Shown here one piece after another: positions 37,909 through 63,523 of a stretch of DNA of 64,000 nucleotides. Each line of letters begins with the position of its first letter. The stretch's first letter is position 1. This DNA is from an uncultured delta proteobacterium (GTDB lineage: Bacteria > Myxococcota_A > Polyangia > Polyangiales > Polyangiaceae), in contig CAVOKF010000003.1 of the NCBI GenBank assembly GCA_963696385.1, positions 704,001-768,000 on the forward strand, given 5' to 3'. The position numbers and the translations under genes are program-made. The notes under the pieces were generated by a model that had not been told where the DNA came from, did not search any database, and worked only from the letters and a program-made list of their open reading frames with translations.

Positions 37909-38152
37909 CGTGTTCAACGGCCGTCGCAGAGCGATTCGAGGCTACGAAGGCCACGCGGTCGCGTAGGACGTACGTGGAGCGAGGCCGACCGACGCGTCGA
38001 ACCGGGCAGCAGGCCGTTGAACACGCTTTGAGCCGGGTGATCCGCTTGCCGGCACGCGCGAGCGCGATGGCGGAATGCGGTCGGGGTGACTCCTTCTCCG
38101 TTGCACGTCGCGTTCCGCGACAAATGACCACCGCCGCCCTCCGACGAAGTCG

Positions 38153-39236: not shown

Positions 39237-39426
39237 GTCGGCCGTGTCGAATCTACTGCAGTCACGGCTCGAATCAACGCGCACGGCCAAGTCCGCAAGC
39301 AACCTGCTGTAGACGAAACCCCCGCGTGCGGACTGGCCGGGGAGCGAGAGATTCCAATTCACGAGACACAAGCTGCCGTGCTTCTTGCGTTGAGTAACGT
39401 TGGCGACTAAAAAGACTCTTGCACAT

Positions 39427-41403: not shown

Positions 41404-41446
41404 CCCACAGCCACACGAACACTCGCGAGCCGCGATAGCCCTGGCC

Positions 41447-45755: not shown

Positions 45756-45770
45756 GGGGGCGTTAGCCAT

Positions 45771-46703
45771 ATGGTTGCAAGACGGCTTCGGACGGCTCCC
45801 CTTGCTCTTGTCCTGCTGCGTTTGAGCCTTGGCTGCGAACAAGGCCACCCCAGTGCGACGCCGTCCTCCCCCGGCTCCTCCCAGGGCGCGTCCTCCTCCG
45901 GTTCCGGCTCCTCGCAGGGCGCGGCCTCCTCCGGCTCCTCCAAGAATGCCTTCTCCGACGCCGCATCCCAGAGCGTCGCAAGTGGTGCAAACGTGATTTT
46001 CTCGGACGATTTTGCGAGCTCGACGTTGAGTGCGAGCTGGATCGCCCTCAGCCGGCACGGCGACTACGGCAACAATGAACTCCAATGCTATGTGCCCGCC
46101 GCCGCGTCTCTGACCGGCGGGGGCTTGGCGATCGAGTCACTGGCCGCCACCCAGACCTGCGGCGACTCAACGCACGCACCAACTCCCTCGGCCTACACCT
46201 CGGGCATGATCCAGTGGACCAACTTTCACTTTACGTACGGAACGGTGGCATTCAAGGCCAAGATGGCCGGTGGCCAAGGCACTTGGCCGGCCATCTGGCT
46301 CCTGGGGGCAAACTGCCAGGCTTCGAACGTGTTAACATCCGACAACGTCGGAAGCTGCGACTGGCCAACCCCCGGCTCGGACGAAATTGATATCACCGAG
46401 ATAGTTAATAGCGATCACGTGCACGTGAACCAGGCGTTGCACAGCGGCGCCACCAACACCAACTGCACGGCATCCACCACGGACGTAACCCAAAATTTTC
46501 ACGTGTACCGCCTCGTGTGGACCGCTCGGTCGCTCGTGTGGTCCATCGACGGAGCCGAGACCTGTACATTTTCGACCGGAGTCCCGTCGACGCCGATGTT
46601 CGTCATCATCAACACAGCTCTCGGCGGAGTAGGGGGCCCCGTGAGTTCCTCTACCCTGCCCCAAACCATGAACGTCGATTACATTACGGTGACCCAGCCA
46701 TGA
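45771..46703 (+). CDS. glycoside hydrolase family 16 lipoprotein
   Basis: Lipobox LSLGC, Ser/Gly linker, YTSG, WPAIWLL, catalytic EIDITE, FHVYRLVW. Confidence 0.9.
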   Translation: MVARRLRTAPLALVLLRLSLGCEQGHPSATPSSPGSSQGASSSGSGSSQGAASSGSSKNAFSDAASQSVASGANVIFSDDFASSTLSASWIALSRHGDYGNNELQCYVPAAASLTGGGLAIESLAATQTCGDSTHAPTPSAYTSGMIQWTNFHFTYGTVAFKAKMAGGQGTWPAIWLLGANCQASNVLTSDNVGSCDWPTPGSDEIDITEIVNSDHVHVNQALHSGATNTNCTASTTDVTQNFHVYRLVWTARSLVWSIDGAETCTFSTGVPSTPMFVIINTALGGVGGPVSSSTLPQTMNVDYITVTQP

Positions 46704-46723: not shown

Positions 46724-47725
46724 CTACCTGCCCAAGACACTTTTCGCAACCGCAAATCCTCGCGCACCGAGCGCCGCGCGAAGCGCTGAAATCCACAGCA
46801 TCCTCGAGCGCAGTGCACCCAGGGGTGCCTCCAGCGCCGTGGCCAACACGCGGTAGGCGGCCAGCCTTCGGCTGCGATGCGCGGCTTCGTTCACCGCATA
46901 GGCCTCAAAATGCGAGACGAAGGCTCGATCCTGCATGCCTCCGGTCCCGAGCCCGCGCCGCGCCCCTTTCGCGCACGCCTCGCTCAATATGGCCCTCACT
47001 TCCTTCGCGTTCCGGCGAATGCCCGCAAGCGCGACAGACATCTGTTGCCCGTGAACGCGGTAGCCATACAGAGCGAGCGGCGTGTACGCGAATCCACCTT
47101 CGATGGCGAGATCAAGCCACATCGCCAGATCCAGCGCCATCGCGATGTCGCGCCGATATCCACCGCACGCCCGATACGGCGCGGCCCGAATCATCGTCCC
47201 AGAATGGACGGGCCTTGCGTGGCCGTCGAAGATCAATCTCAATGCTTGCGCTGGGCCGCGCACAGTCTCCTCGCCAAACGACCTGTCGACAGTACTCTCA
47301 TTCGGACCGATCAATTCGACGCCGGAAAAACAAAAAGCGACCTGAGGGTGCCGCCTCATCAGGTCGATCTGAGTTGCAAACGCGTCCGGTCGAACAGCGA
47401 GATCGTCGGCGGAGATCACCATGAGAAGCTCGCCGCGCGAAAGCCGCTCCGTACCCTCGATCAACGATCGGGCGAAGCCCGCGTTTTTTTCGTGCGCCAC
47501 GAGCCTGACGCGGGCATCCAATTCCGCGAATCTGCGAACGACGCTTACCGAATCATCCTTCGAGCAATCGTCAATCACGATTAGTTCGAAATCTGAAAAG
47601 CTCTGCGCTAAAATGGATTCTATGCATCCCTTCAAGTAGCGCTCGTAATTGTAATTCAGAACGACGACTGAAAGGGTCGGCGTCGTCTCGCTTTTTCCAT
47701 TCACGTCTCGGTCCGTTTCCGTCAT
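46724..47725 (-). CDS. GT2 glycosyltransferase
   Basis: SVVVLNYNYERYL, ELIVIDDCSKD, ISADD, DLAMWL. Confidence 0.9.
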   Translation of the reverse strand: MTETDRDVNGKSETTPTLSVVVLNYNYERYLKGCIESILAQSFSDFELIVIDDCSKDDSVSVVRRFAELDARVRLVAHEKNAGFARSLIEGTERLSRGELLMVISADDLAVRPDAFATQIDLMRRHPQVAFCFSGVELIGPNESTVDRSFGEETVRGPAQALRLIFDGHARPVHSGTMIRAAPYRACGGYRRDIAMALDLAMWLDLAIEGGFAYTPLALYGYRVHGQQMSVALAGIRRNAKEVRAILSEACAKGARRGLGTGGMQDRAFVSHFEAYAVNEAAHRSRRLAAYRVLATALEAPLGALRSRMLWISALRAALGARGFAVAKSVLGR

Positions 47726-47817
47726 GGCCCCCACATGGTTCGCATCGTCGCTGGACTCGGACGCACCGCGTGCGACCGGCGGACGACTGCCCGAAAGGTC
47801 AGGGCAAGAGCCAGGCA

Positions 47818-48615
47818 TCAATACCACTCCTCCCAACGATCGAAGACGCCGGTCATCAGCGCGGTGAAGATCAAATCTCCGTCGAAGCGCGTGACGAACG
47901 TGCGCGGAATCGTTCCGACTGGACGGGTTTCCTCCGCCTGAGCGTACACGACTTCGTACCCCACTTGGCGAGCTGCTTGCGCCGCTGAGGCCGGCCAGTT
48001 CAGCGATTGTCCGAAGGGTATCGCAAAGGTCTCCACCTTGATACCCAATCGATCTTCAATGACGCGTCTCGACGACCCCAATTCATCCATGATCCGAGGC
48101 AAGTCGAGATGTGTGAAGTCCGGATGGGTGGCCGAATGACTGCCGACTTCGACCCCCGCGGCGATCAGACGCTCAAGGTCCCGCCAACCGAGAAACACGT
48201 CATCGCCCCAAGGTCCCTTGCCGTCCGACCAATCCGAAACCACAAACAGCGACCATGGTATATTGTAGTCGGCTAGAATCGGCGCGGCGTTGCACATGAC
48301 GCTGCGGAGCCCGTCGTCGAAGGTAATCGCCACGTCCTTGGGGCCGCCGCCATCGCGCGCCAGATCCGAAGCGGGAACGAACCGCAGCCCAGCGCCAAGA
48401 GCCAGTTCGATGTGCCGTCTGAAGTGAGCCGGGCTGACGTCGTTCACGCCAAAGAGCGGCTGACCGACCGAATGGTAACAAAGAATCCTCCCGACTTTTC
48501 GTTCTCGCCGCCTACCCCACAAGGCCAGGGCATTGCGCTCGCAATACATCCGAGCGCTGGCCACATGCTGTCGCCGGAGACCCGTTTTACGAATCAGACC
48601 CGTCAATGTCTGCAT
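47818..48615 (-). CDS. polysaccharide deacetylase (CE4/NodB)
   Basis: ILCYHSV, ITFDDG, EVGSHSATH, FAIPFG. Confidence 0.9.
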   Translation of the reverse strand: MQTLTGLIRKTGLRRQHVASARMYCERNALALWGRRRERKVGRILCYHSVGQPLFGVNDVSPAHFRRHIELALGAGLRFVPASDLARDGGGPKDVAITFDDGLRSVMCNAAPILADYNIPWSLFVVSDWSDGKGPWGDDVFLGWRDLERLIAAGVEVGSHSATHPDFTHLDLPRIMDELGSSRRVIEDRLGIKVETFAIPFGQSLNWPASAAQAARQVGYEVVYAQAEETRPVGTIPRTFVTRFDGDLIFTALMTGVFDRWEEWY

Positions 48616-48642: not shown

Positions 48643-49587
48643 CTAGGCATCGAGCTTTCCGGTCTCCCCCATGCGACGAAGCTTCGCACCGTCGACGTGG
48701 CCAACGTCCCCGGGGAGCCGCAGGCCATCGTAAAAGCCCTTGAGATGCGCCGCCCAATGTCGTATCCCGCGCGGTCGCTCGAGCCGGGCCATTTGAGCGA
48801 GCAATTTCCACGTCATCTCGCCGTGCTCGAGCGCGAAGTAGCCAGCGGCTCGCACGTCTCCGCGACGCACAAAGCGCCCCCAGTTCACACCGAGCCCATG
48901 GTCGTATTCGACGAAGAGTCTCAACGCATCCGAGTGCGATCGAAATCCATTGGTATGTATGACTTCGATATCGGGGTCAGCTATCCATTTGGCACCGCTT
49001 GCAAACACTTTGTAGGAGAGCGACGAGTCGTTGCTCTTTACCGCAGGGCGATTGGGCCCGAGGAGTTCATCGAAGCCGCCAATTCGACACAAAAATGCCT
49101 TGCGAGCGCTCATGTTGGCGCCCGCGCTGACCATCGCAACTCGACGTCGGCCGCGCTGTCGCTGCCAATCGAACGACGGCAGAAACTCAGGATACGATCC
49201 GCTTTGGCTCTCAGCACCTGGCGGCGCCTTCAGCTGTCCGAAGATGAACTGCAAGTTCGAATCTCGCTCGAACGCCACCAAGATGCGCTCGATCCACGTG
49301 GGCTGTGGGCAGCAGTCGTCGTCCAGAAACGCAACCAGGGGCGCCTGCGCGATCGCCGCGCCGAAATTTCGGGCAGGACACGCGCCCGGCCGCGGCATGC
49401 GGTGATGCTGAAAGCGCCCGTCCTGCATCGCCTCGACCACGTTCAAACTGTCCTTGGTGTCGCTCTGGTCCATGGCAAGAACCTGAACGTCTCGGTCCGC
49501 AGCAGCGACCCGCACGGCTTTCAGGCATTCCGCCAGATGCGTTGCGCGATTGCGGGTGGGGATAACAATCGAGATCGTCGGTGCCAT
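48643..49587 (-). CDS. GT2 glycosyltransferase
   Basis: SIVIPTRNR, ARNFG, AFLDDD, GANM, GGFDELLG. Confidence 0.9.
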   Translation of the reverse strand: MAPTISIVIPTRNRATHLAECLKAVRVAAADRDVQVLAMDQSDTKDSLNVVEAMQDGRFQHHRMPRPGACPARNFGAAIAQAPLVAFLDDDCCPQPTWIERILVAFERDSNLQFIFGQLKAPPGAESQSGSYPEFLPSFDWQRQRGRRRVAMVSAGANMSARKAFLCRIGGFDELLGPNRPAVKSNDSSLSYKVFASGAKWIADPDIEVIHTNGFRSHSDALRLFVEYDHGLGVNWGRFVRRGDVRAAGYFALEHGEMTWKLLAQMARLERPRGIRHWAAHLKGFYDGLRLPGDVGHVDGAKLRRMGETGKLDA

Positions 49588-49798: not shown

Positions 49799-51391
49799 TC
49801 ACTTGCGGTCCACCTTCCTCGACAGCGCCTCTCGCAGAAGCGCTACCTGATCTTTGCCAAGGCCGCCGACCGCCCATAGGCACAGGCCGTACGACGTCAC
49901 CGCCACGGGAGCGGCTACGAACGCCCACACGCGCGACAGCGACAGCGCCACGGCACCCATGACCCCACCGGCGACCAGACCGCGCACCATGCCGAGCGCC
50001 AGGCCACGATCGAAAATCCCCGCGGGCGCGAGCCAGACCCCTGCCACTACCATGAGCAGCTCACTCACGACGCTCGCCACACACACGCCGAGCCCGCCGT
50101 TGCCCATCCGTGACTGGAACCACGGAATGAGCAACGGATCGACCACACTACTTACAACGACGCAGAGGAACTGGGCTGCTGCCCACGCCTTTTGGCGCCC
50201 GGCAGCCAGGATCGAAATCCCAAGTGGCATGCTGACGTACATCAGCAGAAGAAAAGCAGAGAGAACGACGAGGTTCGCCTGGGCCGGACCATACGACTTT
50301 CGGCTAAAAAGCAGAATGCCGAGACCCGGATAGAGCGCACAACTGAGCGAAATGGGAATGGCGAGAACGATTGTTGCCCGAAGCGCGCTGCGGACGGTTT
50401 GCATGTAGCCCGCACGATCCCCGGCGTGCAGTCGCGACAAAGTGGGGTAAAGAGCGCCCACGATGAGGCTTGCGGGAAGAACGAGAGCGCCGATCAGCCG
50501 GCGCGCCACGGCGTGCCATCCCACCACTTCTGCTGGCGCGAGCTTCGACAGCAGGACGGCGTCGACGTTCGGTTGCAGTGCCATCGAGAAACCAAAGAGT
50601 AGAAATGGCGTGCCCTGAGTGACCAGAACCCGTAAGGCATCGCGGTCCGGTCGCAACCGTCCTACCCCGACCGACCCCAGAACGCGCGCAACGAGTAGCA
50701 ACACGATCGCTGAGGCCGCGGCTTGCGCCAAGAGCACTGCCCGGAGGCCCCCTCCGAGCCACAGCGTGGGCACAACGAATACGACGGCGAGCAACTGCTG
50801 CGCAACCTGACCGTACGCTCCGATGTCGGTTCGCTCGAACCCCCTCACCGTATCCTGGCACGCGCTCGTCAGGGTTTGAAAGAAGCATTGGGTTACGACG
50901 AGTGCCAGGACCAGTTGGAACTCGCGCGGATATCGCACGGCGGCGGAGCCCGCCGTCAACAAGCCGTAAACGACGAGTGCGACAGCAAAGCGCCAGAGCA
51001 AGGCCGTCCCGAGCAGCGCCCCGGCGCCGGAGCGATCGCGCGCGACGTTTCCGGTCAGAACGGCACCTTGACCCCATTCGACCACCAAAAATCCGAACGA
51101 GGTGAGCATCCAAGCCACGTAGATACGACCGAAGTCGCTGGCTCCCAGATAGCGAGCCATCACGGCCGTCAACAAGATCGAAAGCGGAGTCCCGACGACC
51201 TGCGCACCAAGTGAGACAAGCGTATTGCGGAGCACCAGGCGCCGTGGATTCGAGGAGACCGATTTCGCCGTCAAGAAGCCACCCCGCCCGCTGTCGTGCT
51301 CGCCCGAAACGATCTCCGATCCACCCTCATGTTCACCCGAAAGATCCCATAAGCGCATGAGCCTTGACGAGGGATTTCTTCTCTGCACCAC
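49799..51391 (-). CDS. wzx: Wzx-type flippase
   Basis: More than ten TM segments; ARYLGASDFG, DAVLLSKL...VGW, ALYPTLSRL, LLIPW...GGLG; true start probably downstream of the ORF start. Confidence 0.88.
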   Translation of the reverse strand: MVQRRNPSSRLMRLWDLSGEHEGGSEIVSGEHDSGRGGFLTAKSVSSNPRRLVLRNTLVSLGAQVVGTPLSILLTAVMARYLGASDFGRIYVAWMLTSFGFLVVEWGQGAVLTGNVARDRSGAGALLGTALLWRFAVALVVYGLLTAGSAAVRYPREFQLVLALVVTQCFFQTLTSACQDTVRGFERTDIGAYGQVAQQLLAVVFVVPTLWLGGGLRAVLLAQAAASAIVLLLVARVLGSVGVGRLRPDRDALRVLVTQGTPFLLFGFSMALQPNVDAVLLSKLAPAEVVGWHAVARRLIGALVLPASLIVGALYPTLSRLHAGDRAGYMQTVRSALRATIVLAIPISLSCALYPGLGILLFSRKSYGPAQANLVVLSAFLLLMYVSMPLGISILAAGRQKAWAAAQFLCVVVSSVVDPLLIPWFQSRMGNGGLGVCVASVVSELLMVVAGVWLAPAGIFDRGLALGMVRGLVAGGVMGAVALSLSRVWAFVAAPVAVTSYGLCLWAVGGLGKDQVALLREALSRKVDRK

Positions 51392-52749: not shown

Positions 52750-53841
52750 TCATCCGGCTGTGGGCACCGAACCATCGGACGCCGCGGCGCGACCGTCGAG
52801 CGACGCTTGGATCGCCCCGCTCACGTCGCCGCAAAATTTGTCGAGCGTATGGTGCTTCTCCACATAGGCTCGCGCGGCCCGCCCCATGGCGCTGGCGCGG
52901 TCCGGATCGTTCCACAGAGACACGATCGCCGCGCGCAGCGCAGAGGCATCCCCAACAGGAACGAACAGACCCGTCACCCCTTCCTGGATCACGTCCACCT
53001 GTCCTTTCGTGCGGGAGCAGATGACCGGCTTGCCCATAGCCATTGCTTCGAGGATTACGTTGACGCCGTTGTCCGTGTCCGTTCGGCTTAGCGGCACGAC
53101 CACGAACCGCGACTTCGCGTACGTTTCACGAAGGTCGGTGAGCGGCAGACGGCCGACGGTCACGTTGTCGCTTGCAAGACGGGCAAAGACTTCGGCGCTC
53201 ACGCGGTGTCCGAAGCCGAAACGATCCACTCGCACGTGATCGGTTGCGATGTGGCAACGGAGGTCGGTACCGCGTAGGGCATCGAGCAGTGTCGGATAAT
53301 CACGCATTTCGGCCCCTGCGCTGCTTATCATTTCGATCGACCGCTCACGCGGGCTCCAAAACAGCTGGTCGACGAAGTGCTTCACGAGGTAGATCTTGTC
53401 CGGGGCGATCCGAAGCCGCTCGATCGCGTAGGTCCGCTGCACCGAGCTCCAGGTCACAATCGCCTGAAGCCCGCTGCCAAACGCCTCAAGGACTGTCCGG
53501 ACGCTCGGTCTGGAAAACCAATAAAGCATCGCTACATGCGGCTTGCTTCCAGGCGAGAAACGATCGAGCGCCATCAAGGCCAAGGAGACGCGCTCGCTCC
53601 ATGTCACGATCACGTCGTATTCCTCGCGACGACGGCTCACTTCGGCCGCAAGCCTTGCCCATCCAGGAATCCTCGGTGCCATGAGGCGAGGTTTTACGTC
53701 ACCGAGAATCGATTCGTCGTACCGTCTTTCGAACAGATCGTCGAACAACTGCCAGCGGGGTGCAGTGGCCCCGGTGGCATCGCGCGGGGGACGGTCTGTC
53801 GTGCGGCCCTGTACGGCCAGAGCCATTCGTCGTCTCGTCAC
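52750..53841 (-). CDS. GT4 glycosyltransferase
   Basis: SAGAEMRDYPTL, FVVVPL...GVNVILEAMAMGKPVI, GLFVPVGD. Confidence 0.9.
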   Translation of the reverse strand: MTRRRMALAVQGRTTDRPPRDATGATAPRWQLFDDLFERRYDESILGDVKPRLMAPRIPGWARLAAEVSRRREEYDVIVTWSERVSLALMALDRFSPGSKPHVAMLYWFSRPSVRTVLEAFGSGLQAIVTWSSVQRTYAIERLRIAPDKIYLVKHFVDQLFWSPRERSIEMISSAGAEMRDYPTLLDALRGTDLRCHIATDHVRVDRFGFGHRVSAEVFARLASDNVTVGRLPLTDLRETYAKSRFVVVPLSRTDTDNGVNVILEAMAMGKPVICSRTKGQVDVIQEGVTGLFVPVGDASALRAAIVSLWNDPDRASAMGRAARAYVEKHHTLDKFCGDVSGAIQASLDGRAAASDGSVPTAG

Positions 53842-53893
53842 TCAAACGCCTCCCTATTCTCGGGATCCATACTCACAGACAGCACTCGGCGCC

Positions 53894-54710
53894 TCAAGTG
53901 CCGCCCTCGCCCGATCGCAACAGAGCCCGCCCGAGAACCAGCAGGAACTTCGGGTCGCGCACGAGATAGCGATACGACAAGCGTCGCGGCTCACGACATA
54001 GGCGAAAGAGCCACTCGAGCCCCGACCGTGCCATCCAGCGTGGAGCGCGAGGCGCTGTACCAGCTAGGAAGTCCAGCGAAGCGCCGACGCCGAGCAAGAC
54101 CGCCGGGCGTAGGTCGTCGCGAGCACGGTCGATCCGAGATCTCCTGCTTTGGCGCCCCGAACGCGACGAGCACAAGGTCAGGGTGCGCCGCCCGGACGCG
54201 CTCGACGACGTGGGCCTGACGCCCGAGCGGTTCGTCCGCATCGAAACGGGGAGAATCGACGCCAACGATCTTGAGATCGGGAAGCTGCTCTCCGAGCCTC
54301 TGGCGCGCCATCTCGCCGACGCCGGGCGCGCCACCCAGGAGATACACGCCCCACCCGCGGGCGGCCGATCGGGCCAGGAGGAGCGGAACGAAGTCGGATC
54401 CGGCAACCCGCTCCGGAATGGGAGAACGAAGCAAATGGGACGCCCAAACAATCGGCATGCCGTCCGCAATGCAGAGATCCGCCCGGCCGTAAGCCGATCG
54501 CATGGCGGGATCTTCGTGAGCAATCATCACGTGGTCGACGTTCGGCGTAAACACCGCACCGCCCCTGCCCTTCGCGATGAGCGCCTCGACCACGTCCAGA
54601 GCCTCGCCTTGCGTGACCGAGTCGATCCGCACCGGGCCAAGCTGCAGGAACCGCCTCGGGCTCACCGAGCTAGCTCCGGCTCCGTCGAGCGCCCCGCGGG
54701 CCGGTGTCAT
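53894..54710 (-). CDS. WecG/TagA/CpsF-family glycosyltransferase (+1 frameshift near 54136)
   Basis: FTPNVDH, ADGMP, ERVAGSD, AFGAPKQE in one frame; GVGASLDF, GLEWLFRL...EPRRL in the other. Confidence 0.92.
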
Positions 54711-55333
54711 GTCTCGGAATCCAAGGGCGCAGGCCTTTCTCCCGCCAAGCGCGACGAGACAGAAGGGACCGGCGCTTGAACGATGGAGTCTGGCGGAACC
54801 GACGTTCGGACAAAACAGTTCGCCGTAACCTTCGAACGTGCACCGAGTGTGATCGGTCCCACGATCGTGCTTCCTGCCCCCACGTGAACACCGGTCGCAA
54901 CGACCGGCGCCCCAATCTTTCCACTGCGCGGGTCCGCACTCATTCCGAGCGTAACGTTCTGGAAGAGTATCGCTCCACGCTCGACGCGCGCGGCGCGACT
55001 GACCGCGAGGCCCATGCCATGAACGAGCACAATCCCGGGCTCGAACTGCGCTTGCCAATGAATGTCGGATCCGTAGGCGTGACGAATCAGCCTCGAGGCG
55101 ATCTGAGGTGCAAGGGGAAGTCCGGCTTCGACGAAAAAGCGCATGGTTCGGTACGCTGCCAGCATCTGAAAGCCGACACGGGTCACGAGGTCTCTCGCCA
55201 ATACCGATTCACCAGGGAACCGCTCGGCCCCGTATTTCGCGTCGTAATAGCAGAGCATTCTATGGTCTTCGCGAACCGCGTCCACCATAGCGCGCCATGC
55301 GCGGACGATACCCACCGGCCCGGGACGAGTCAC
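54707..55333 (-). CDS. serine O-acetyltransferase (CysE)-like LbH acyltransferase
   Basis: YGSDIH...GIVLVHGMG...FQNVTLG...APVV...VGAGS; coupled to neighbours by GTGA and ATGA overlaps. Confidence 0.85.
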   Translation of the reverse strand: MTRPGPVGIVRAWRAMVDAVREDHRMLCYYDAKYGAERFPGESVLARDLVTRVGFQMLAAYRTMRFFVEAGLPLAPQIASRLIRHAYGSDIHWQAQFEPGIVLVHGMGLAVSRAARVERGAILFQNVTLGMSADPRSGKIGAPVVATGVHVGAGSTIVGPITLGARSKVTANCFVRTSVPPDSIVQAPVPSVSSRLAGERPAPLDSET

Positions 55334-56163
55334 GGGGACAAACCCGCGCCGCTCGCCTTGCGACGTTGAACGGCCTCTACGTGATCCATGAGCTCGCGAA
55401 TCGAGCGCACGGCTCTCACCTGGTCCTCCGCCAACGCGACGCCGATCTCTTCCTCGAGTGCCACGATGAGGCGCAGTGCGCCGAGGGAATCCCATTGCGG
55501 GATCTGGCCCGGGCCATCCTGCACGTCCGGAACACGGGATAGACCGAGCACGTGCATGACGAGCGCCGGCACGTCCCGTGGGAGGACGTCCGCGTGGTTG
55601 TCGCGATCCAACCGTGTCCGCGCGGGATTCCCCTCCACGACTGCGCCATCGGGAACGTCACCGGAGACTACGCTCCCAGCCCGCACCACCACGCCGCACC
55701 CAATCGTCGACCCCGGAAGAACGACGACGCGGTGGCCAAGCGTAGAGCCCTTGCCGACGCACACGCGCTTCGGAGCGGCGTTGCTCCTGAAATCCTCGGC
55801 CACGTGAAAGTTCGAGTCCAAGATGATCGAGAAGGCGCCGATTGACACGCCGTCCTGAATCTCCATTTCGCCGATGCACGAAATAGCTGCGCCTGCTCCG
55901 ATGCGAACTCGATTCCCAATGCGAAGGCTGCCGCTGACGAAAAGGTGCGACCGAACGGGACGGCTATTCAGCCGGAAATCGTCGCCGATGAGCAACGTCC
56001 CTGAATTGTGCACGAACGGGGAGCCGCCAAGCGCGGGCCGAGCGCCCACTCCAGTGCACCGGCGCAACCGGTATCGATCGACGGTTTCGGTGTAGCGGTC
56101 GCGCAGATGCCCGATCCAACCGCTGCCGCCCGCTCGGCTCCTCGCCATCGGCGTTAGCGTCAC
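55330..56163 (-). CDS. LbH acyltransferase fused to C-terminal acyl carrier protein
   Basis: Hexapeptide repeats with ILDSNFH and GNPAR, then ACP helices with phosphopantetheine motif QWDSLGALRLIVALEE (Ser at 55486-55488). Confidence 0.88.
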   Translation of the reverse strand: MTLTPMARSRAGGSGWIGHLRDRYTETVDRYRLRRCTGVGARPALGGSPFVHNSGTLLIGDDFRLNSRPVRSHLFVSGSLRIGNRVRIGAGAAISCIGEMEIQDGVSIGAFSIILDSNFHVAEDFRSNAAPKRVCVGKGSTLGHRVVVLPGSTIGCGVVVRAGSVVSGDVPDGAVVEGNPARTRLDRDNHADVLPRDVPALVMHVLGLSRVPDVQDGPGQIPQWDSLGALRLIVALEEEIGVALAEDQVRAVRSIRELMDHVEAVQRRKASGAGLSP

Positions 56164-58544
56164 GCGATGAGCTCCAGAGAAATGGCCTCGGGGATCGGAA
56201 ATTCGCGGCGGGTGTCCCAAATAAAGCGCGTGGGCAGTTCGCGCTGGAAGCTCGAACGTTCCCAAAATTCAAGACAAGGCTTGTTCTTCGGGGTCGTTAC
56301 CAGGTCCGCGATGACGACGTCCAGCGACAGCTTCCTGGCGGTGTCCACGGCGATGTGCGCCATCGTCTCCTCGACACGACGACCCATGACCCGGCAACTC
56401 AGAACGAAGTCGACGACACGCGCAGCGCCTCCCTGCGCCTCCAAACTGAGGACGCCTGTCAAGCCGGCATCGCCCAGGCGGTCCGACACCGACAGTGCCC
56501 ACAGCCAACGCCCCTTCTGCGTTGCCCATGCGAGCAGCTCGCCCTCCGTCAGCCGCCGGGTGGCCAGGTTCATCTGATTGGTTTTGTTCAGTAGCTGCGT
56601 CGCGCGCGACAGGTTCGCGGCGTTCAACGGCTCGGCGCGGACACGTATTCCGAGGCCCTTGAGCCACTCGTCGAGGGAGCCAACCTGAGCGCGGAGCTCC
56701 TCACGCTTGCGGTCCGACGCATACATTTCGGTGCGGACGGCGTCCTCCGCACTGCGCGTCGGAGTGTCGAAGCAGCGCAGCGACAGGAGCGTGCTTGCGT
56801 AGGCGAGCTTATCGTCCGGCCAATCCGGAACGAATACTTCGGGCAACGCCTCACGCACCCGCGCCCGCTCGAAAGGATTGTCGTCGATGAACACCGTCGA
56901 CTGGAGCCCCAGGTTCACACTGGATACGATTTCGGCGACGTTCTTGGCCTTGTCTTGCCAGTTGATCCGCCACGCGACGAAATCATCCTCTTTCAGGACC
57001 ATCGCGGCGTGATTGCGAATCGCCTCGAGTGCGACGGTCTCTTCGTTTTTGCTCACCATGGCGAGCAAAATGCCACGCCGCTTGAGGCTCTTTAGCGCGC
57101 GTTGAAAGTCGACGAACGCCTCTCCGACGCTGTCGTGACCGCCGAGGCGCAGTTGTTCCCAGCCGACGTCGCCGACGATTCCACCCCAAAGCGTGTCGTC
57201 GAGATCGACCACGACGAGCTTGCGCGTCAGGCCGGTCATGCTGGCGATTGCAGCTCTGATGTCCCCGGCTGCCTGTTCGAAGACCCCCGAGTGAAAGGGG
57301 ACCTTGCCCATGTACCAAAGCTTGGCGCTGTACGCGCCGCGGCCGACGTGTTCGAACCATCGCTGGGCGTTGAGTACGAAGATGCTCGGCGCCCCATCGA
57401 GCTGCGCGACGAGCCGATGATTGATGGCGTAGAGAGCGCGCGTTATCCCATGAGGGCGTGAATCGGCGAGACCCAACCCCCGCCGCCACGGCGCAACCGT
57501 CCACGAAGGCACGAACGCGAACCGGTACGATTGCAGGCCCTCCCGCAGCAGTTTGACGAAGGCGTCGACTTCCGAGAGAAGGACTTCCTCCTCGACCTGC
57601 TCGAACTCCAGAACGCGAGCGAAGGAGGGCAAAACGCCTTCGGGTCGGGTCCATACAACCGCGTAGTCGTGCTCCGAGTTCCTCGCCGACATCAGCGTGG
57701 GGACGACTTGACCGTAAGGCGCAACTGTCGCAGCAACCGGAGCGCTCTCGCCACCGGCTTCGAGGAAACGAGCCAACTCGTCGATCGTGAAATCCGACAC
57801 GAGAAGACCCCGATGAGCCGCCTCAGGACGTGCGCCGCCTGATGCTTTTGCGGTCCCGTTCTGGAGCCCCCGGTCACCCTCGACCTCCCGCATCGAGGCG
57901 CCGTTCGCGCCGACCGCTCCCGTCGATTGGACGACGGCGGCGCCACGGTCGAGATACCGAAGAACACGCGCCGGGTTGCCTCCGGCAACGACCCTCGGCG
58001 GCACCTCGCCGGTGACGACGCTGCCGGCGGTGATGACGGCGCCATGACCGATACGGGCGCCCGGCAGCACCGTCACGCGACTCGCCAGCCACACGCCGTC
58101 GCCAATCTCGACCGGCTCCGCGCCGATGCCCTCAGGGCCTTCGGGGTCCCCCAGTTCGGTGTCCGAGACGATGCAGTACGGGCCGATGGCGACACGGTCA
58201 CCGATCGTGACGCGGAGGTTCGCGCTGATGACGCTGCCAAAGTTGATGGACCCTTGCCCACCGATGCGAATGGCGCCGTTGGGGCCCGTCATAAGTTCGA
58301 CGGGGGCGAAGTCGCATACCAGCTTCGTGCGGCTGCCGATGTCGATGCGCCCCCGGTTGTCGACATGGACCCGGCCGATCACGCGAACCCAAGCGCCAAC
58401 GGTATTGCAGTTTCGAAACTGCAAGCGACCGGAAGCGGCTTCGGCGATGTATGCGGCGTCCTCCCTCAGGCGTGTCAAAAGAGCCTGGTCGCGCTGACGG
58501 ACCAGCCGCTCGCGCAGGAGAGAAAGAAACTGGTTCACGGCCAT
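56160..58544 (-). CDS. LbH acyltransferase fused to FkbH-like (HAD-IIIC) glyceryl-ACP synthase
   Basis: N-terminal hexapeptide domain ending GGNPAR; then VVDLDDTLWGG, SKN, INWQDK, FIDDNPFER, KTNQMN, LSCRVMGR. Confidence 0.92.
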   Translation of the reverse strand: MAVNQFLSLLRERLVRQRDQALLTRLREDAAYIAEAASGRLQFRNCNTVGAWVRVIGRVHVDNRGRIDIGSRTKLVCDFAPVELMTGPNGAIRIGGQGSINFGSVISANLRVTIGDRVAIGPYCIVSDTELGDPEGPEGIGAEPVEIGDGVWLASRVTVLPGARIGHGAVITAGSVVTGEVPPRVVAGGNPARVLRYLDRGAAVVQSTGAVGANGASMREVEGDRGLQNGTAKASGGARPEAAHRGLLVSDFTIDELARFLEAGGESAPVAATVAPYGQVVPTLMSARNSEHDYAVVWTRPEGVLPSFARVLEFEQVEEEVLLSEVDAFVKLLREGLQSYRFAFVPSWTVAPWRRGLGLADSRPHGITRALYAINHRLVAQLDGAPSIFVLNAQRWFEHVGRGAYSAKLWYMGKVPFHSGVFEQAAGDIRAAIASMTGLTRKLVVVDLDDTLWGGIVGDVGWEQLRLGGHDSVGEAFVDFQRALKSLKRRGILLAMVSKNEETVALEAIRNHAAMVLKEDDFVAWRINWQDKAKNVAEIVSSVNLGLQSTVFIDDNPFERARVREALPEVFVPDWPDDKLAYASTLLSLRCFDTPTRSAEDAVRTEMYASDRKREELRAQVGSLDEWLKGLGIRVRAEPLNAANLSRATQLLNKTNQMNLATRRLTEGELLAWATQKGRWLWALSVSDRLGDAGLTGVLSLEAQGGAARVVDFVLSCRVMGRRVEETMAHIAVDTARKLSLDVVIADLVTTPKNKPCLEFWERSSFQRELPTRFIWDTRREFPIPEAISLELIA

Positions 58545-58719
58545 TAATCCAGTAGCGTCTGCATGGGCTCAGATCAAGGCCGTGCGTGCGCACCCTCGTT
58601 GCCTCTGCAGGGCTCATCTTGTCGCCCACGGCATCGATGGCGTATCCTCCGAGATTGCGCGCTCCGGCGTAGCGGTGAGGCGGGATGCGACGCCGGCCCG
58701 ACGAGCAAGGAGACACCTT

Positions 58720-59868
58720 ATGACCGCCGAACCGCCGCACACGGCGCCCACCGTTGGCGCAAACCCGACCGAGGCCAGGCCCACGGTAAGCGTGGTTCTC
58801 GCGACCTACAATCGTCTCGACTCCCTTCTCCGGCTGCTGTCGTGTCTGACCGGTCAGACGCTGTCGCCCAGCCGGTTCGAGGTCGTCGTCGTGGACGACG
58901 GATCGACGATCCCGGTACGCGAGCACGTGACAGCGCGACGGTATCCGTTCCCGGTGTCGGTTCTCGAGCAGATCAACGCTGGGCCATCGGCGGCACGCCA
59001 CCGCGGCGTCCTCCAGGCGCGCGGCGACGTTTTGGTGCTCGTCGACGACGACATGGATCTGCCCTCGCACTTTCTGGAGACTCACCTCCGGTATCACACG
59101 AGCGGCCGCCCTACGGCGGTCTTCGGCCGCTACGTCTCGGATCCAAACATCGGTGCCAAGGCCCTCTTCGAGCGCTATCACGGCTTGAAGTGGGACGAGC
59201 TCTCGCGCGCCGTGGCGAGCGGACGGGTCAAAGTGGATGGGACCCTTCTGGCAACTGGCAACGCATCGATGCGTCGGCAAGACTACCTCCGAGTGGGAGG
59301 GCTCGATCTGTCCTTGCCGCGCGCAGAGGACGTGGCCCTTGGGCTGGATCTCGAGGAGCTCGGCGTCGATCTCGTCTTCTCGGACGCCGCCTACTCCGTG
59401 CATTTGTCGGACCATTCTCAGCCTGAAAAATGGCGGGCGCGGGCGCTCCTGCACGGGAGGCTCGAACCACGAATCGCACGCAAGCATCCAGCGATGGCGC
59501 ACGCCGACCCATGGAGGTTTGCCTTCTCGCTTCCTTTGGCCGGTCGCGTCCTTTGCCTGCCTGCCTTACTCGCTCCGTCGCTCGGCGAGAAGGTCGCGAC
59601 CCTCACCTACGAGGCCGCCGAACGCGCCGATGAGCTCGGCTTCGAGCGCCTCGCCATGCGCGCAACCGGACTCGTATTCGGGATGGAATATTTCCGCGGG
59701 TTGCGGCAAGAAGCCGGGTCGATCCGCGGGGTCGCCACGGGTTGTCTCAACTTCCTAAGAAAGGCCGCCGCCTCCGATCGACCCGTCGCGGGAGTGCCGC
59801 CCTGGCTGGCACGCGGCGTCCGCGCCCTTACCGACGGCTGGGATCGGCCGACGGACTCTGCCGATTAG
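58720..59868 (+). CDS. GT2 glycosyltransferase
   Basis: RBS AAGGAG; SVVLATYNR, VVVDDGS, LVDDD, TGNAS, AEDVALG. Confidence 0.9.
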   Translation: MTAEPPHTAPTVGANPTEARPTVSVVLATYNRLDSLLRLLSCLTGQTLSPSRFEVVVVDDGSTIPVREHVTARRYPFPVSVLEQINAGPSAARHRGVLQARGDVLVLVDDDMDLPSHFLETHLRYHTSGRPTAVFGRYVSDPNIGAKALFERYHGLKWDELSRAVASGRVKVDGTLLATGNASMRRQDYLRVGGLDLSLPRAEDVALGLDLEELGVDLVFSDAAYSVHLSDHSQPEKWRARALLHGRLEPRIARKHPAMAHADPWRFAFSLPLAGRVLCLPALLAPSLGEKVATLTYEAAERADELGFERLAMRATGLVFGMEYFRGLRQEAGSIRGVATGCLNFLRKAAASDRPVAGVPPWLARGVRALTDGWDRPTDSAD

Positions 59869-61346
59869 GGCGACTGCAGGTAGCTTGGGTCCGCCCCGGG
59901 CCCCTCGAGAGCCTGCATGAACGCCACCAGATCACGCTGATCGAGGTCGGTCAAGCCGATCGGGTGGATCTCGGACGTGCCCGGATACCCACTGATGTTG
60001 CCCCCCATGTTGAAGAACGCGACGACTGCCGCGAGCGAGCCCATTTGGCCCGTATGCATCCATGTCGGCCTCATGCTCACGCACCGCAGCGTCGGCGTCC
60101 GAAAGGCGCCTAGCCTCTGCGGCGAGACCGTCGCCGGCAAGCGTCCGTCGCTCCCGTCACTGAAGATACCCAACGAATTGAGCGGGTCAGCGATGGCCTC
60201 AGCGATCCCTGTGGCGGCCCCCTGATCGTTCGCGTCGATGAATGCTTGCTGCACAATCTGCGGCTCTAGCCCGACGTTGTGAAACTGTTGGTCGGACATG
60301 AAAGGGCCAGCATGACACTGGACGCAACCACCTTTCCCGACAAACACGGCGGCCCCTCGCTGGGCAGAGCGGGACACGGCCGTCGTACTTCCGTGCATCC
60401 ACGCATCGAAGGGGGACGGGCCACACGTCAGAAGGCGCTCGAAAGCGCCGATCGCCTTTCCGGCATTGACCACCACGGTGGTGACGGCCAATTGGTTGCT
60501 CGCCGTCATGCCATCGAATTCGGCGTGGTCTCCCGGCATGCCATGGTACGTCCCGTCGCATACCGGCTGCGGTGCAGCAGGATTCTGCGGCTGGCACCCA
60601 GTCAACTGGGCGCTGAGCACCGGGAACTGGCTCGCGTCGTCCAACGGCGGCATCGGACCGAAGAGCGCCTCGTAGTCGGCCTGATAGCGCGCGAAAATTT
60701 GCTCCGCCGCATAGAGGCGCGAACTGTTCATCTCCACGACGGTCTCCAGCGGGCCGAAGATCTGGTTGTAGAGCGCATCCCGCCGGCCGTCCCACATAAG
60801 AAGCGTCGCCTGGCCTACGTCGAGCAGCGGCAAGGCGCGCCGCCGACCCCAACCGGCTCCAAGAGAAATCTGGCGCTGAAACGACCTCGTATCCGAGAAA
60901 CCGCTGGTGGGAATGTGACACCCGGCGCAGGCCACACGGCCGGTCTGACCGACCGTTCCCAGAGTGTCCGGACTGCCATCGTTGTCGGTATCCAGGAGAG
61001 GCCCTGAGAACGACGGATCGTAGAATAACCTTTGACCCAGAGCTGCCGCCGCTGGACTGTCCGCAAAGCGATTGGTCGCATCCGGCGGAGACGGGGGCAA
61101 CGGGTCCGGGGAGAGAGCTTGCAGCGCGGACCACTGATCCGCGCTAATCACGGCATCCGGGTCGTCCGCGTCCGAGGCCGCTTCCTCGAGATCCCCGTCG
61201 ACGGCCGCTGCGTCACTCGTTGCCGCGTCCTCCGCCACGTCATCGCGCGGTCCGTCGGCGCCTTCAGCCACGGCGGCGGCCCGATTCGTCCCCGACGAGC
61301 CGCATCCGATCGCGCCGCACGCGAGCGTCATCAGTGTCGCGTTCAA
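59865..61346 (-). CDS. di-heme cytochrome c peroxidase / MauG-family lipoprotein
   Basis: Lipobox GAIGC; LGQRLFYD, CAGCH, WDGR, CVQCH, FHNVG, FRTPTLR, MHTG. Confidence 0.92.
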   Translation of the reverse strand: MNATLMTLACGAIGCGSSGTNRAAAVAEGADGPRDDVAEDAATSDAAAVDGDLEEAASDADDPDAVISADQWSALQALSPDPLPPSPPDATNRFADSPAAAALGQRLFYDPSFSGPLLDTDNDGSPDTLGTVGQTGRVACAGCHIPTSGFSDTRSFQRQISLGAGWGRRRALPLLDVGQATLLMWDGRRDALYNQIFGPLETVVEMNSSRLYAAEQIFARYQADYEALFGPMPPLDDASQFPVLSAQLTGCQPQNPAAPQPVCDGTYHGMPGDHAEFDGMTASNQLAVTTVVVNAGKAIGAFERLLTCGPSPFDAWMHGSTTAVSRSAQRGAAVFVGKGGCVQCHAGPFMSDQQFHNVGLEPQIVQQAFIDANDQGAATGIAEAIADPLNSLGIFSDGSDGRLPATVSPQRLGAFRTPTLRCVSMRPTWMHTGQMGSLAAVVAFFNMGGNISGYPGTSEIHPIGLTDLDQRDLVAFMQALEGPGADPSYLQSP

Positions 61347-63523
61347 TAGGCGCCGCACGGCAACTGAGTCTCGTCCCAGGTTGGAGCCGCCGCACCACTC
61401 TTGAACGCGAGGTCATCAAAATGACGCTTGGTCTCCTCGCATTGATGCGCGTAGAGGAAAGAGTATGGCCGCGCCTGATAGCAGATGAGCTCGTCCGGAG
61501 CCCCTTCGTGATACAGCACGTCGCCGAAGGTCACGGTCACCGCCCCCTGCAGCGTGAAGCCACTGGGAAACAGCGAGCAACCAGCAGGCGTTCCGTCGAG
61601 GAAAACGTACATCCGTTGCGAGGACACGTAGAGGTCGAAGCGCGTCATCCGGTCGACCCCCGCATGCTCGAACGGCGGCTCGGTGGGTATCGTGACGCTT
61701 CCCGGCTGAGCCATGTCGTAATCGATGAAGCGATGCTCAGAGGCCTGGTTGTTCACGTCCCAGGGACTGCCGTTGACCAATCCATGAATCGCTTCGGCTT
61801 CAATGCGCATCGACGGCCCAAGAATCGGTTGAATCAGAAGCGTGTTGTTGTTCGGGAGCGACAGTGCTTCTTGAACGGGAGCGTCCTGATCGGAGATGAT
61901 GAGCTGGGGGTAACGTCGGTCCGTACTGACGATGTCCACGGACATCGTGGCATGCAGGAACGTGGTGGGGTCCGCATCGATGTTCGCCTTTTGAAGAGCG
62001 GTAAAGCGCACTTTGCCCGTCGTGTCCTGGGCGTAGTCATCGTAGGCTACCCAGAGCTGTCCCAGCACCTGCCCATAGGTGAAGACCATGACGCCGCCCG
62101 GCTCATCGAGCCGATATGCGCTGAAGTCAAAAGCGGAGGACTGCCAGCGCCCACAGTTGAAGTCCGTGCAGCCTGGAACGGCGGTGACTGTGCCGAAGTC
62201 GCTGCCGACCGTGAAGCCCTGATACCAGTCCCAATCGGCAGGATCGTGCGGCGCTGGGGCGACCTGAATGAACGAACGTGCCACGGGAATCGGGGAAGCG
62301 GTCGGGGTCCGCAACGCCGAAGCACCGCCGTCGACGAAGAAGGTCTCGATCGGAATGCCGGGCCGGTCGTACTGGCCGTTGACAAAGACTTCGCCCGCAG
62401 GCGTTGCCTCCGTCAAGTCGGCAAGGGTCAAGAACGTCTGGTGCGGCGGGGCGTCGAGATGCTGAGGCGAAAGGAAGCCCTGAAACGGACACCCCGAGGC
62501 AAGAGCTTCCACGACGAGCGTGGTCGGCTGCGTGATCCCCGACCACTCAAGGTGCCAGAGCGGACCGGTTGCGCCTTGCGTGGTCGCACGGTTGTAGCGC
62601 TCTTGCCCCACCGCAAGTTCGACGTGTGAGTCGGGCGGCTGGTACGTCACCGCCATCAGAGGCTTCGTTTCGGCCGCCTGGGCCGTGAGCACCTGAAAGG
62701 CCGCCGCGGGCGCGGTCGTGTCCCCGGAGTGCGAGGCGAGATCGGCGCTGGCGAAATAGTACCTTGCGTATTGAGTCCAATCCTGCCCCGGTTGGACCGC
62801 GGCCGTCTGGGACGAGTATACCGTGCTCGTCGCGGCGCTCGCCGCGGCCGGCGCGTAGAATACGATACCGTCGTCGCGCCAGCCCTGGCTCAGAAACGCT
62901 TGCCGCTCGCTCGCGTCGGTCGTGTACACTTTGAGGCGACTCTCCCTCCAGCCGACCTCACCGCCGGTCGTGTACCCAGCAACCGCGTAGACGGGCACGC
63001 GATCCGCGCCCGGCGAAACGTACACGTAGCCGAGAGTCGGGTCTGTGCTGACTTCGCCCGTCCACGAATACTGCCCAGACGCGGTGACGAGACCCGAGTT
63101 GTTGGAGGTGAGATTCGTCGGCAAGTCGTAGGTCTGACGCACGCCTGCGCAGCGGTAGATGGCATTCTGTATGGACACCGATCCGTCGGGATTGACTGTG
63201 ATGTCTTGATCGTTGGGTAAGGGGTAGACCCGGTAATCGATGGCTCCGTCGAACGGATCGAAGTCGATCCCTACGGAGTCTTCCCTCTGCGTCGCCGTCA
63301 CATTCGTCAGCGGCGCCAGCGAGGGCAGCTTCGTCGCAACGCCCCCTTCGATTTGCGCGATGATGGTGCCAAAGCTCGTCGCCCCCGAGTCGACCTGAGG
63401 CTGCGTCACCGTGGTGCTCGCGACCACATCCGGGACCGCACCGCCGTCGCGTGGCGCCGAACCCTCCGACGACGAGCAACCGAAAATGCTCAGACCGATC
63501 AGCCAGTGCCAGTTCTCTCTCAT
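61343..63523 (-). CDS. large hypothetical lipoprotein with DUF5648-like repeat
   Basis: Lipobox IFGC; VPVY...YTTDASER...GWRDDGIVFY repeat-like motif; stop overlaps the peroxidase start. Confidence 0.8.
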   Translation of the reverse strand: MRENWHWLIGLSIFGCSSSEGSAPRDGGAVPDVVASTTVTQPQVDSGATSFGTIIAQIEGGVATKLPSLAPLTNVTATQREDSVGIDFDPFDGAIDYRVYPLPNDQDITVNPDGSVSIQNAIYRCAGVRQTYDLPTNLTSNNSGLVTASGQYSWTGEVSTDPTLGYVYVSPGADRVPVYAVAGYTTGGEVGWRESRLKVYTTDASERQAFLSQGWRDDGIVFYAPAAASAATSTVYSSQTAAVQPGQDWTQYARYYFASADLASHSGDTTAPAAAFQVLTAQAAETKPLMAVTYQPPDSHVELAVGQERYNRATTQGATGPLWHLEWSGITQPTTLVVEALASGCPFQGFLSPQHLDAPPHQTFLTLADLTEATPAGEVFVNGQYDRPGIPIETFFVDGGASALRTPTASPIPVARSFIQVAPAPHDPADWDWYQGFTVGSDFGTVTAVPGCTDFNCGRWQSSAFDFSAYRLDEPGGVMVFTYGQVLGQLWVAYDDYAQDTTGKVRFTALQKANIDADPTTFLHATMSVDIVSTDRRYPQLIISDQDAPVQEALSLPNNNTLLIQPILGPSMRIEAEAIHGLVNGSPWDVNNQASEHRFIDYDMAQPGSVTIPTEPPFEHAGVDRMTRFDLYVSSQRMYVFLDGTPAGCSLFPSGFTLQGAVTVTFGDVLYHEGAPDELICYQARPYSFLYAHQCEETKRHFDDLAFKSGAAAPTWDETQLPCGAY

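Follow-up and report, generated by a model that had tools for sequence, protein, structure and literature searches.

Why would a polysaccharide locus encode an FkbH-type loading enzyme and an acyl carrier protein (ACP), each fused to its own acyltransferase domain of the left-handed beta-helix (LbH, or hexapeptide) type? This question is raised by four genes on the minus strand of a 64,000-nucleotide stretch of DNA (the window) from an uncultured Polyangiaceae bacterium (contig CAVOKF010000003.1), which a preliminary description, made from the letters of the DNA, had read as a candidate exopolysaccharide (EPS) acylation system. We put the chance that the first two genes form a self-contained, carrier-protein-dependent acyl-transfer module within an Eps-type Wzx/Wzy locus at a little better than even (about 0.55). 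To judge from their sequences, such a module probably loads a three-carbon acid onto its built-in carrier and then passes the acid to a sugar. The observations behind this reading are the domain make-up of the two proteins, the conservation of their residues, the linkage of their genes, a pattern of complementary half sites in the two LbH domains and the absence of polyketide synthase (PKS) and MBOAT partners. The module is real, conserved and uncharacterised, and the mechanism proposed for it is moderately probable.

A loader and a carrier, each fused to a hexapeptide domain

The preliminary description had four genes joined by overlapping start and stop codons and followed by a GT4 gene. Reading the sequence directly confirms the arrangement:

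56160-58544, minus strand: gene 1, LbH-FkbH fusion, 794 amino acids (profile matches and homologs)
56163-56160, minus strand: overlap of genes 1 and 2, GTGA (read from the sequence)
55330-56163, minus strand: gene 2, LbH-ACP fusion, 277 amino acids (profile matches)
55333-55330, minus strand: overlap of genes 2 and 3, GTGA (read from the sequence)
54707-55333, minus strand: gene 3, CysE/EpsC-like LbH O-acetyltransferase, 208 amino acids, GTG start
54710-54707, minus strand: overlap of genes 3 and 4, ATGA (read from the sequence)
53894-54710, minus strand: gene 4, WecG/TagA/CpsF glycosyltransferase (GT26), EpsA-like, PF03808, ATG start at 54710
52750-53841, minus strand: GT4 glycosyltransferase, weakly EpsE-like (profile matches)

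Gene 2 starts with GTG, and an alternative in-frame ATG lies at 56148. The two fusion proteins divide as follows, all on the minus strand:

57900-58544: gene 1 residues 1-215, N-terminal cap and Trp-type LbH domain (Asn101 and Trp152 kept, no conserved catalytic-loop His)
57225-57812: gene 1 residues 245-440, FkbH N-terminal-type domain (PF21211 in unfused homologs; PDB 3slr aligns from residue 363)
56751-57224: gene 1 residues 441-598, HAD-IIIC phosphatase domain (TIGR01686, conserved residues, 3slr-like model)
56163-56648: gene 1 residues 633-794, GNAT-fold C-terminal domain with Cys717 (conservation and model)
55579-56163: gene 2 residues 1-195, His-type LbH domain (His120 and Ser72-His73 invariant, no Trp or Asn at the columns of LacA W139 and N85)
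55333-55578: gene 2 residues 196-277, ACP domain with Ser226 in W-D-S-L-G (PF00550 and conserved Ser)

Gene 1 had been described as a hexapeptide domain followed by a full FkbH, and profile searches agree: it has a Hexapep match (PF00132), and residues 440-768 match TIGR01686 end to end (positions 2-321 of 323) at 283.3 bits, with the cut-off at 146.65. The PF21211 profile had no match in gene 1 itself at E<=0.01. The motifs named for the two proteins are where they were said to be: DLDDTLW begins at residue 447 and SCRVMGR at residue 716 of gene 1, and WDSL at residue 224 of gene 2. Among 121 gene 1 sequences, D447, D449 and T451, which make up HAD motif I (DxDxT), are kept in all, as is Cys717 of SCRVMGR, and S498, K499, N500, K532, D554 and D555 are kept in 120-121. 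An AlphaFold2 model of residues 441-794, built from a 26-row alignment (mean predicted local distance difference test score 85.8), places the HAD domain on the phosphatase part of 3slr (Bacteroides fragilis BF1531) with a root-mean-square deviation of 1.6 over 155 columns and gives the second domain, with Cys717, a GNAT fold (Foldseek E 4e-7 to 1e-5, TM score on target 0.53-0.69). From work on OzmB, the conserved Cys of the FkbH family carries a glyceryl thioester. The family's function is glyceryl thioester loading onto an ACP, as given in the accessible part of PMC7489565.

The second fusion was likewise described correctly as another hexapeptide domain joined to an ACP: gene 2 matches Hexapep at 32.7 bits and the PP-binding profile PF00550 above its cut-off (22.8 bits against 20.8, over profile positions 30-67 only), and WDSL is present. 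W224, S226 and G228 are kept in 120 of 120 gene 2 sequences. One phosphopantetheinyl transferase is encoded in the window's genome, on another contig; in a related locus, L006, an Sfp-type phosphopantetheinyl transferase gene directly follows the LbH-ACP gene.

The two LbH domains carry complementary half sites

In crystallised members of the LbH family, the catalytic His sits in a protruding loop common to all, and in the enzymes that use acetyl-CoA a conserved Trp from the adjacent subunit stands opposite it, according to the accessible part of the paper on the NeuO structure (PMC3046976); in LacA the active-site residues are His115, Asn85 and Trp139 (PMC12775004, likewise from the accessible part). 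The LbH domain of gene 1 matches PF00132 at 38.4 bits (residues 145-179) and is LacA/WbbJ/WcaF/Maa-like over residues 86-200. For comparison of the active sites, 24 gene 1 and 20 gene 2 domains were aligned with LacA and Maa of E. coli K-12, and larger homolog sets were also counted.

At the column of LacA His115, the gene 1 family has Leu, Val, Ala or Gly in 24/24 sequences and His in 0/24. The gene 2 family has His120 one column beside it in 120/120, together with His73 in 115/115. The column of LacA Trp139 is occupied by Trp152 in 119/119 of the gene 1 family and by Trp in 0/20 of the gene 2 family, in which a Trp anywhere near that column occurs in 3/120 sequences. Asn is found at the LacA Asn85 column in 117/119 of the gene 1 family and 0/20 of the gene 2 family. 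Because the His and the Trp/Asn are divided between the two, neither domain would make a canonical site as a homotrimer, and a mixed assembly could. The sequence pattern argues for a hetero-oligomer rather than a homotrimer. Of the earlier proposal that the fused LbH domains act as acyltransferases, the presence of both domains stands; the picture of two independent transferases does not, and the residue columns suggest complementary half-site paralogs instead.

The same division recurs among relatives. Gene 2 was searched against 1.84 billion representatives, with 14153 matches at 1e-3, 788 at 1e-10 and 85 at 1e-30. Fifteen of the 18 multi-stretch relatives examined are tandem LbH-LbH chains with one His-type and one Trp-type half, in one order in 11 and reversed in 4. 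Their His-type halves have His in 15/15 and Trp in 0/15, and their Trp-type halves have Trp in 14/15 and Asn in 12/15. In the remaining three, one LbH domain combines Asn, His and Trp, which fits the expectation for an undivided ancestor. Among the best 150 representatives, the His-type domain occurs as LbH-ACP, LbH-ACP-ACP, LbH-ACP-adenylation and GNAT-LbH-ACP. An Acetyltransf_6 (FemAB-like GNAT) domain stands ahead of the His-type LbH-ACP in P0272, P0281, P0322, P0334 and P0347, the last of which is 1203 amino acids long and has two GNAT stretches.

The pair also occurs as free genes. In two genomes of the same family and another genus (G075 and G175), a Trp-type LbH gene (230-233 amino acids) is immediately followed by a His-type gene (181-227 amino acids), behind genes for an AsnB-like protein, an adenylating enzyme and a stand-alone ACP and without FkbH. 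Variant modules of this kind, at 7367-12871 of L062 and 2568-8254 of L063, run AsnB-like amidotransferase, adenylating enzyme, ACP, Trp-type LbH, His-type LbH; the next gene encodes an alpha/beta hydrolase in L062 and a cytochrome b561 in L063. Our refined reading of these sequences is that the LbH-pair module may swap loaders, taking either FkbH or an adenylating enzyme. In other phyla, the unfused LbH proteins encoded next to FkbH genes are mixed (some have His without Trp, one has both and two have Trp without a clear His), and as sequences they neither support nor contradict the half-site idea.

Could the LbH domains instead be ordinary acetyl-CoA O-acetyltransferases or trimerisation scaffolds, with the FkbH-ACP product used by an enzyme encoded elsewhere? 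Both domains do score best on the acetyl-CoA-dependent LacA, WbbJ, WcaF and Maa families, and the Trp retained in gene 1 is typical of acetyl-CoA users (PMC3046976, in the part cited above). However, the canonical site is incomplete in both, whereas a separate WcaF-like LbH protein at the edge of the same locus (36717-37391, minus strand) has both the catalytic His and the Trp. In addition, 15 natural proteins join the two LbH types in one chain, fusions of the His type to carrier domains and loaders recur, and the searches described below found no MBOAT, FabH-like or PKS consumer. We regard this explanation as improbable.

The fusion pair is conserved, mostly in glycan loci

By a word-indexed search gene 1 has 1475 relatives, and the best 120 of them were inspected. 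Hexapep is present in 118 of these and nearly all are 720-910 amino acids long, so the LbH-FkbH fusion is a family and not an accident. Its named members come from Polyangiaceae, Myxococcaceae and Aggregicoccus. The homolog from Aggregicoccus sp. 17bor-14 (WP_153866068.1) is 56% identical, and this organism may be culturable. Gene 2 has 343 relatives; the best 120 all carry Hexapep and are mostly about 250-290 amino acids long. In the 11 full-length fusion loci examined beyond the window (L001-L006, L012, L013 and L043-L045), an LbH-ACP gene adjoins the fusion every time, downstream in ten and divergently in one. Domain architecture and neighbourhood, two of the checks proposed at the outset, agree that the double fusion is conserved.

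Four loci, namely the window, L001, L043 and L044 (the last two being the copies in genome G195), have EpsD-, EpsC- and EpsA-like genes alongside the pair. The expected co-occurrence with glycan loci holds in 10 of the 12 fusion loci (window included), which have glycan genes within 10 kb, and fails in L004 and L013.

These two loci bear on a different account, in which the module acylates a lipid, a small molecule or a protein and its place in the Eps locus is incidental or regulatory. It also draws on the unfused LbH pairs of L062 and L063, whose neighbours are AsnB-like, adenylating, ACP and alpha/beta-hydrolase genes and whose setting is not a glycan locus. We nevertheless consider it rather unlikely, given the glycan genes in ten of the 12 loci, the translational coupling to EpsC-like and EpsA-like genes, the EpsD/EpsC/EpsA-like set at both G195 copies, and the kinship of the LbH domains to sugar O-acetyltransferases, their closest relatives of solved structure.

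FkbH relatives in other glycan loci

Unfused FkbH-like proteins of about 565 amino acids, 46-60% identical over residues 240-790, occur in many phyla, including Planctomycetota, Chlorobiota, Nitrospirota, Acidobacteriota and Rhodothermota. Their genes lie in glycan loci, near genes for glycosyltransferases, sugar aminotransferases, NeuB, deacetylases and hexapeptide or GNAT transferases; methyltransferases, VOC proteins and MaoC-SDR fusions are further neighbours. Just upstream are small open reading frames (ORFs), with an ACP-like (L)DS(L/I) motif in 10 of 11. In four of these loci from other phyla (L019, L016, L021 and L025), a MaoC-dehydratase/SDR fusion follows the unfused FkbH gene; such fusions could convert glyceryl-ACP to another three-carbon acyl group.

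A tree was made of 42 FkbH domains, none of which was dropped and none of which is experimentally characterised. The 12 LbH-fused rows form one group (support 92/92), nested within a clade (100/100) of ACP-preceded, unfused FkbH proteins from glycan loci of other phyla. Sister to the fused group is a metagenome-assembled genome (MAG) of the Alphaproteobacteria whose FkbH gene has a separate hexapeptide gene after it. Since the tree is without a characterised FkbH, the assignment of glycerate rests on family membership and the conserved catalytic residues.

The tree bears on another explanation, which keeps the architecture and has the FkbH-like domain load some other phosphorylated or activated hydroxy-acid, making the decoration something other than glycerate. 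A long stem (1.51 changes per column) divides the clade from other FkbH homologs, the comparison is without a characterised FkbH, and clade members in other phyla stand beside methyltransferase, VOC/glyoxalase, MaoC-SDR and GNAT genes. Yet the match to TIGR01686 runs the length of the profile and scores almost double the cut-off, all 121 sequences keep the HAD nucleophile motif and the Cys, and the window operon has no tailoring enzyme. This explanation is unlikely in our view, and of the alternatives weighed here it is the one we take most seriously.

Within the phylum sample of 401 genomes, 41 have an FkbH-like match at E<=1e-30. In the tree, the long stem separates the glycan-locus clade from two other groups of the same phylum. 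In 5 of 16 distant loci the FkbH gene lies beside MBOAT genes (L047, L048, L051, L057 and L061, with FkbH homologs of about 600-740 amino acids), which looks like a Dlt-like route with FkbH as the loader. In three of the 16, ACP-FkbH-reductase proteins are encoded beside adenylation-reductase or ketosynthase-acyltransferase (KS-AT) genes. These are proteins of about 1550 amino acids (L058 3705-8348, L059 4598-9253 and L060 4161-8864) with PP-binding and terminal reductase domains by Pfam and an FkbH-like region by tblastn; all three stand beside adenylation-reductase proteins, L058 also has a KS-AT protein, and together they form a 100/100 clade of their own.

The Eps-type locus of the window

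The window's genome comprises 6.9 Mb on 8 contigs and is 96.4% complete, and its nearest named relatives are Polyangiaceae MAGs. The polysaccharide setting given in the preliminary description is borne out: an Eps-type Wzx/Wzy locus surrounds the operon and spans about 36.7-59.9 kb of the window. Besides the genes listed above it contains:

39400-40038, plus strand: outer-membrane polysaccharide export (OPX) protein, EpsY-like (NCBIfam; EpsY model 178 bits against a cut-off of 320)
40057-41403, plus strand: EpsX-like (NCBIfam)
41288-42991, plus strand: polysaccharide co-polymerase (PCP), EpsV-like (NCBIfam; EpsV model 216 bits against 800)
43316-45766, plus strand: GH44, EpsB-like (NCBIfam; EpsB model 692 bits against 1250)
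45771-46703, plus strand: GH16
46724-47836, minus strand: GT2
47818-48615, minus strand: deacetylase
48643-49587, minus strand: GT2
49799-51391, minus strand: Wzx (Wzx_EPS model 66 bits against 800)
58582-59868, plus strand: GT2, EpsD-like, divergent (EpsD model 310 bits against 370)

The Eps models of Myxococcus xanthus are the best NCBIfam matches for most locus genes. All stay under their equivalog cut-offs, as do the EpsA model (153 + 75 bits against 500), the EpsC model (94 against 150) and the EpsE model (58 against 400); by sequence, the locus is homologous to the M. xanthus Eps locus and not equivalent to it. NCBIfam Eps models gave zero matches to genes 1 and 2. Gene 3 reaches 94 bits with the EpsC model and 85 bits with the CysE model, under the cut-off in each case. 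It is 31% identical to E. coli CysE, whose D143 and H158 align to D90 and H105 of gene 3. This EpsC-like protein probably adds ordinary O-acetyl groups. Just outside the module, a gene for a di-haem MauG/CCP-like peroxidase is found both in the window (59865-61358, minus strand) and in L005 (18750-20084).

The stated absence of a PKS, dehydrogenase or MBOAT partner holds over a wider search. Among the window ORFs scanned there were no dehydrogenases, O-methyltransferase, FabH-like enzyme or PKS, and the 3-hydroxyacyl-CoA dehydrogenase profile (3HCDH) had no match on the window's contig (C3). The genome has one FkbH domain. No ketosynthase (KS) occurs in any frame longer than 824 amino acids in the genome, and the nearest KS is at C3:692009, outside the window; as KS domains are found only in frames of at most 824 amino acids, the genome lacks a modular PKS. 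MBOAT (PF03062) had no match in the genome (96.4% complete). Supply of a PKS extender unit was therefore rejected for this genome, given its single FkbH, the lack of a KS frame longer than 824 amino acids and the lack of 3HCDH on the contig. A Dlt-like MBOAT route was rejected as well, there being no PF03062 match.

Gene 4 reads as two frames in the window, with a break near 54136. Contigs of all four public runs compared (three studies) lack exactly one base at 54136 and are otherwise identical there; one of these runs may be the source sample, and the other three come from two further studies. A relative, L001, is 94% identical and has an intact WecG gene, also without the extra base. The break is thus an assembly error, and WecG as a pseudogene is ruled out. 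The broken frame was what spoke for the operon being in decay and non-functional in this organism; with the frameshift argument refuted, all other operon genes open and the catalytic residues conserved, decay is very improbable.

DNA near-identical to 53700-54700 of the window was found in soil, wetland and peat metagenome runs of several studies (word share 0.62-0.98). Two more genes of the window look broken. At 37914-39545 (minus strand), a longer ORF in a different frame surrounds a GT1 domain fragment (38153-38554), and at 19095-20003 (minus strand) an amino-acid permease ORF matches profile positions 179-400 only. In view of the error at 54136, these breaks may be assembly indels too.

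Proposed mechanism

How might the two fusion proteins work together? The FkbH part of gene 1, as a family member, would take 1,3-bisphosphoglycerate, remove the 3-phosphate and hold glycerate as a thioester on Cys717, and from there the GNAT-fold domain would transfer glyceryl to the ACP of gene 2, on the phosphopantetheine arm of Ser226. The sequence pattern and the gene fusions suggest that the two LbH paralogs assemble into a shared hetero-oligomeric beta-helix core, which would hold loader and carrier together and would have complete sites only at those places where the gene 2 His loop lies opposite the Trp/Asn side of gene 1. Such a composite site would use the acyl-pantetheine arm instead of acyl-CoA and esterify a sugar hydroxyl. 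The reaction would be cytoplasmic and precede flipping by Wzx, and the acceptor may be a nucleotide sugar or an undecaprenyl-linked repeat unit, presumably built by the neighbouring EpsA-, EpsD- and EpsE-like transferases. Because the operon has no tailoring enzyme, unmodified glyceryl is the simplest product. Glycerate as the acyl group, the sugar acceptor, the hetero-oligomer and the switch of donor are what we infer.

A more specific and more general form of this mechanism is offered tentatively, at clearly less than even odds. It holds that genes 1 and 2 make an obligate hetero-oligomeric LbH acyltransferase of His-only and Trp/Asn-only paralogs, whose core tethers loader and carrier and which installs glycerate on EPS, and that this is one form of a portable acyl-ACP transferase, served by FkbH or adenylating loaders and occurring as free genes, as loader and carrier fusions and as tandem chains.

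Several points tell against the reading of genes 1 and 2 as an EPS-acylating module. The PP-binding score of gene 2 is marginal (22.8/20.8) and covers part of the profile. The glycan-associated FkbH clade sits on its long stem (1.51 changes per column) in a tree without a characterised FkbH, so a substrate other than 1,3-bisphosphoglycerate is possible. Within 10 kb, L004 has housekeeping genes, a methyltransferase and an aldo-keto reductase and no glycan genes, L013 has CHAT-TPR, GH57 and lectin genes and again no glycan genes, and the unfused LbH-pair modules of L062 and L063 lie outside glycan loci. Full fusions are also rare, being found in 3 of the 401 phylum genomes (the window's genome, G390 and, twice, G195), and the fusion is absent from the one same-genus genome searched. 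As to the divided site, the LbH domain of gene 1 keeps an invariant Asp128 and a Glu or Asp at residue 130, which might serve as a base, a His is present somewhere in the loop in 16 of 121 homologs of gene 1, and in three of the 15 Trp-type tandem halves a His lies 1-3 residues upstream; the gene 1 LbH domain may be active on its own. Finally, a beta-helix assembly of three subunits is not easily reconciled with two LbH domains per chain.

If the proposal is true, it provides a case in which two genes each supply part of the active site of a beta-helix acyltransferase. It would also affect annotation, since the proteins are now named 'acetyltransferase' or 'HAD-IIIC family phosphatase', and would be relevant to the engineering of acylated polysaccharides.

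Comparison with known systems

Every part of the module is of a known kind: FkbH loaders, ACPs and LbH sugar acyltransferases. In the literature searched, which leaves most subscription journals outside its scope, we did not find described the use of FkbH and ACP for glycan decoration, the LbH fusion of loader and carrier, or an LbH site split over paralogs. In line with the preliminary description, no paper on the architecture was found there, and the searches on FkbH yielded only natural-product papers and a mention of cj1302. Bacterial polysaccharides can carry glyceroyl and other short hydroxy-acyl groups, and no paper naming the genes that install them was found in this literature. The module is a compact two-protein candidate for such a glyceroyl-type route, in which fusions and gene order tie together loader, carrier and transferase.

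The closest comparison is with the FkbH-type glyceryl-ACP loaders, which share the full TIGR01686 match, the HAD DxDxT motif, the invariant Cys and a carrier encoded next door. FkbH/FkbJ (FK520) and OzmB/OzmE (oxazolomycin) pair a loader of this type with a stand-alone ACP. Mad7/Mad8 and Mad14/Mad12 of tetromadurin do the same, as set out in the accessible part of PMC7489565. The window module differs from these pathways in having no dehydrogenases, O-methyltransferase, FabH-like enzyme or PKS, in having loader and carrier each fused to an LbH domain, and in lying in a glycan locus; in the tree, its FkbH clade is separate from the ACP-FkbH-reductase proteins beside KS-AT genes.

In Campylobacter jejuni, cj1302 has been linked to glyceroyl-modified pseudaminic acid. 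PMC7099621 mentions it as an fkbH-domain gene in the flagellin glycosylation island; like gene 1, it lies inside a glycan-modification locus, and neither LbH fusions nor a functional test were seen in the accessible part of that paper.

In M. xanthus, the Eps pathway comprises EpsA, EpsB, EpsC, EpsD, EpsE, EpsV, EpsY and Wzx, and EpsC, a serine O-acetyltransferase homolog, may O-acetylate EPS precursors. The protein list in the accessible part of that paper (PMC7484181) has no counterpart of genes 1 and 2.

The trimeric LbH sugar O-acetyltransferases LacA (GAT), Maa, NeuO and OatWY share the hexapeptide beta-helix and are the best solved relatives. Unlike in these enzymes, the His and the Trp/Asn are here divided between two paralogs, and a tethered acyl-pantetheine probably replaces acetyl-CoA as the donor. 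LpxA and LpxD are alike in principle, as LbH enzymes that move an acyl group from a carrier protein to a sugar. The window domains are not members of these families (TIGR01852 24 bits against a cut-off of 231, NF002060 33 against 207); here the carrier is fused, the site is split over two chains and, as proposed, the acyl group would be short and hydroxylated.

Dlt and MBOAT-SGNH systems of polymer acylation resemble the module in that a carrier-protein or thioester donor feeds the acylation of an envelope polymer. They differ from it in that the window genome has no MBOAT, and the transfer proposed here would take place in the cytoplasm, carried out by soluble LbH domains.

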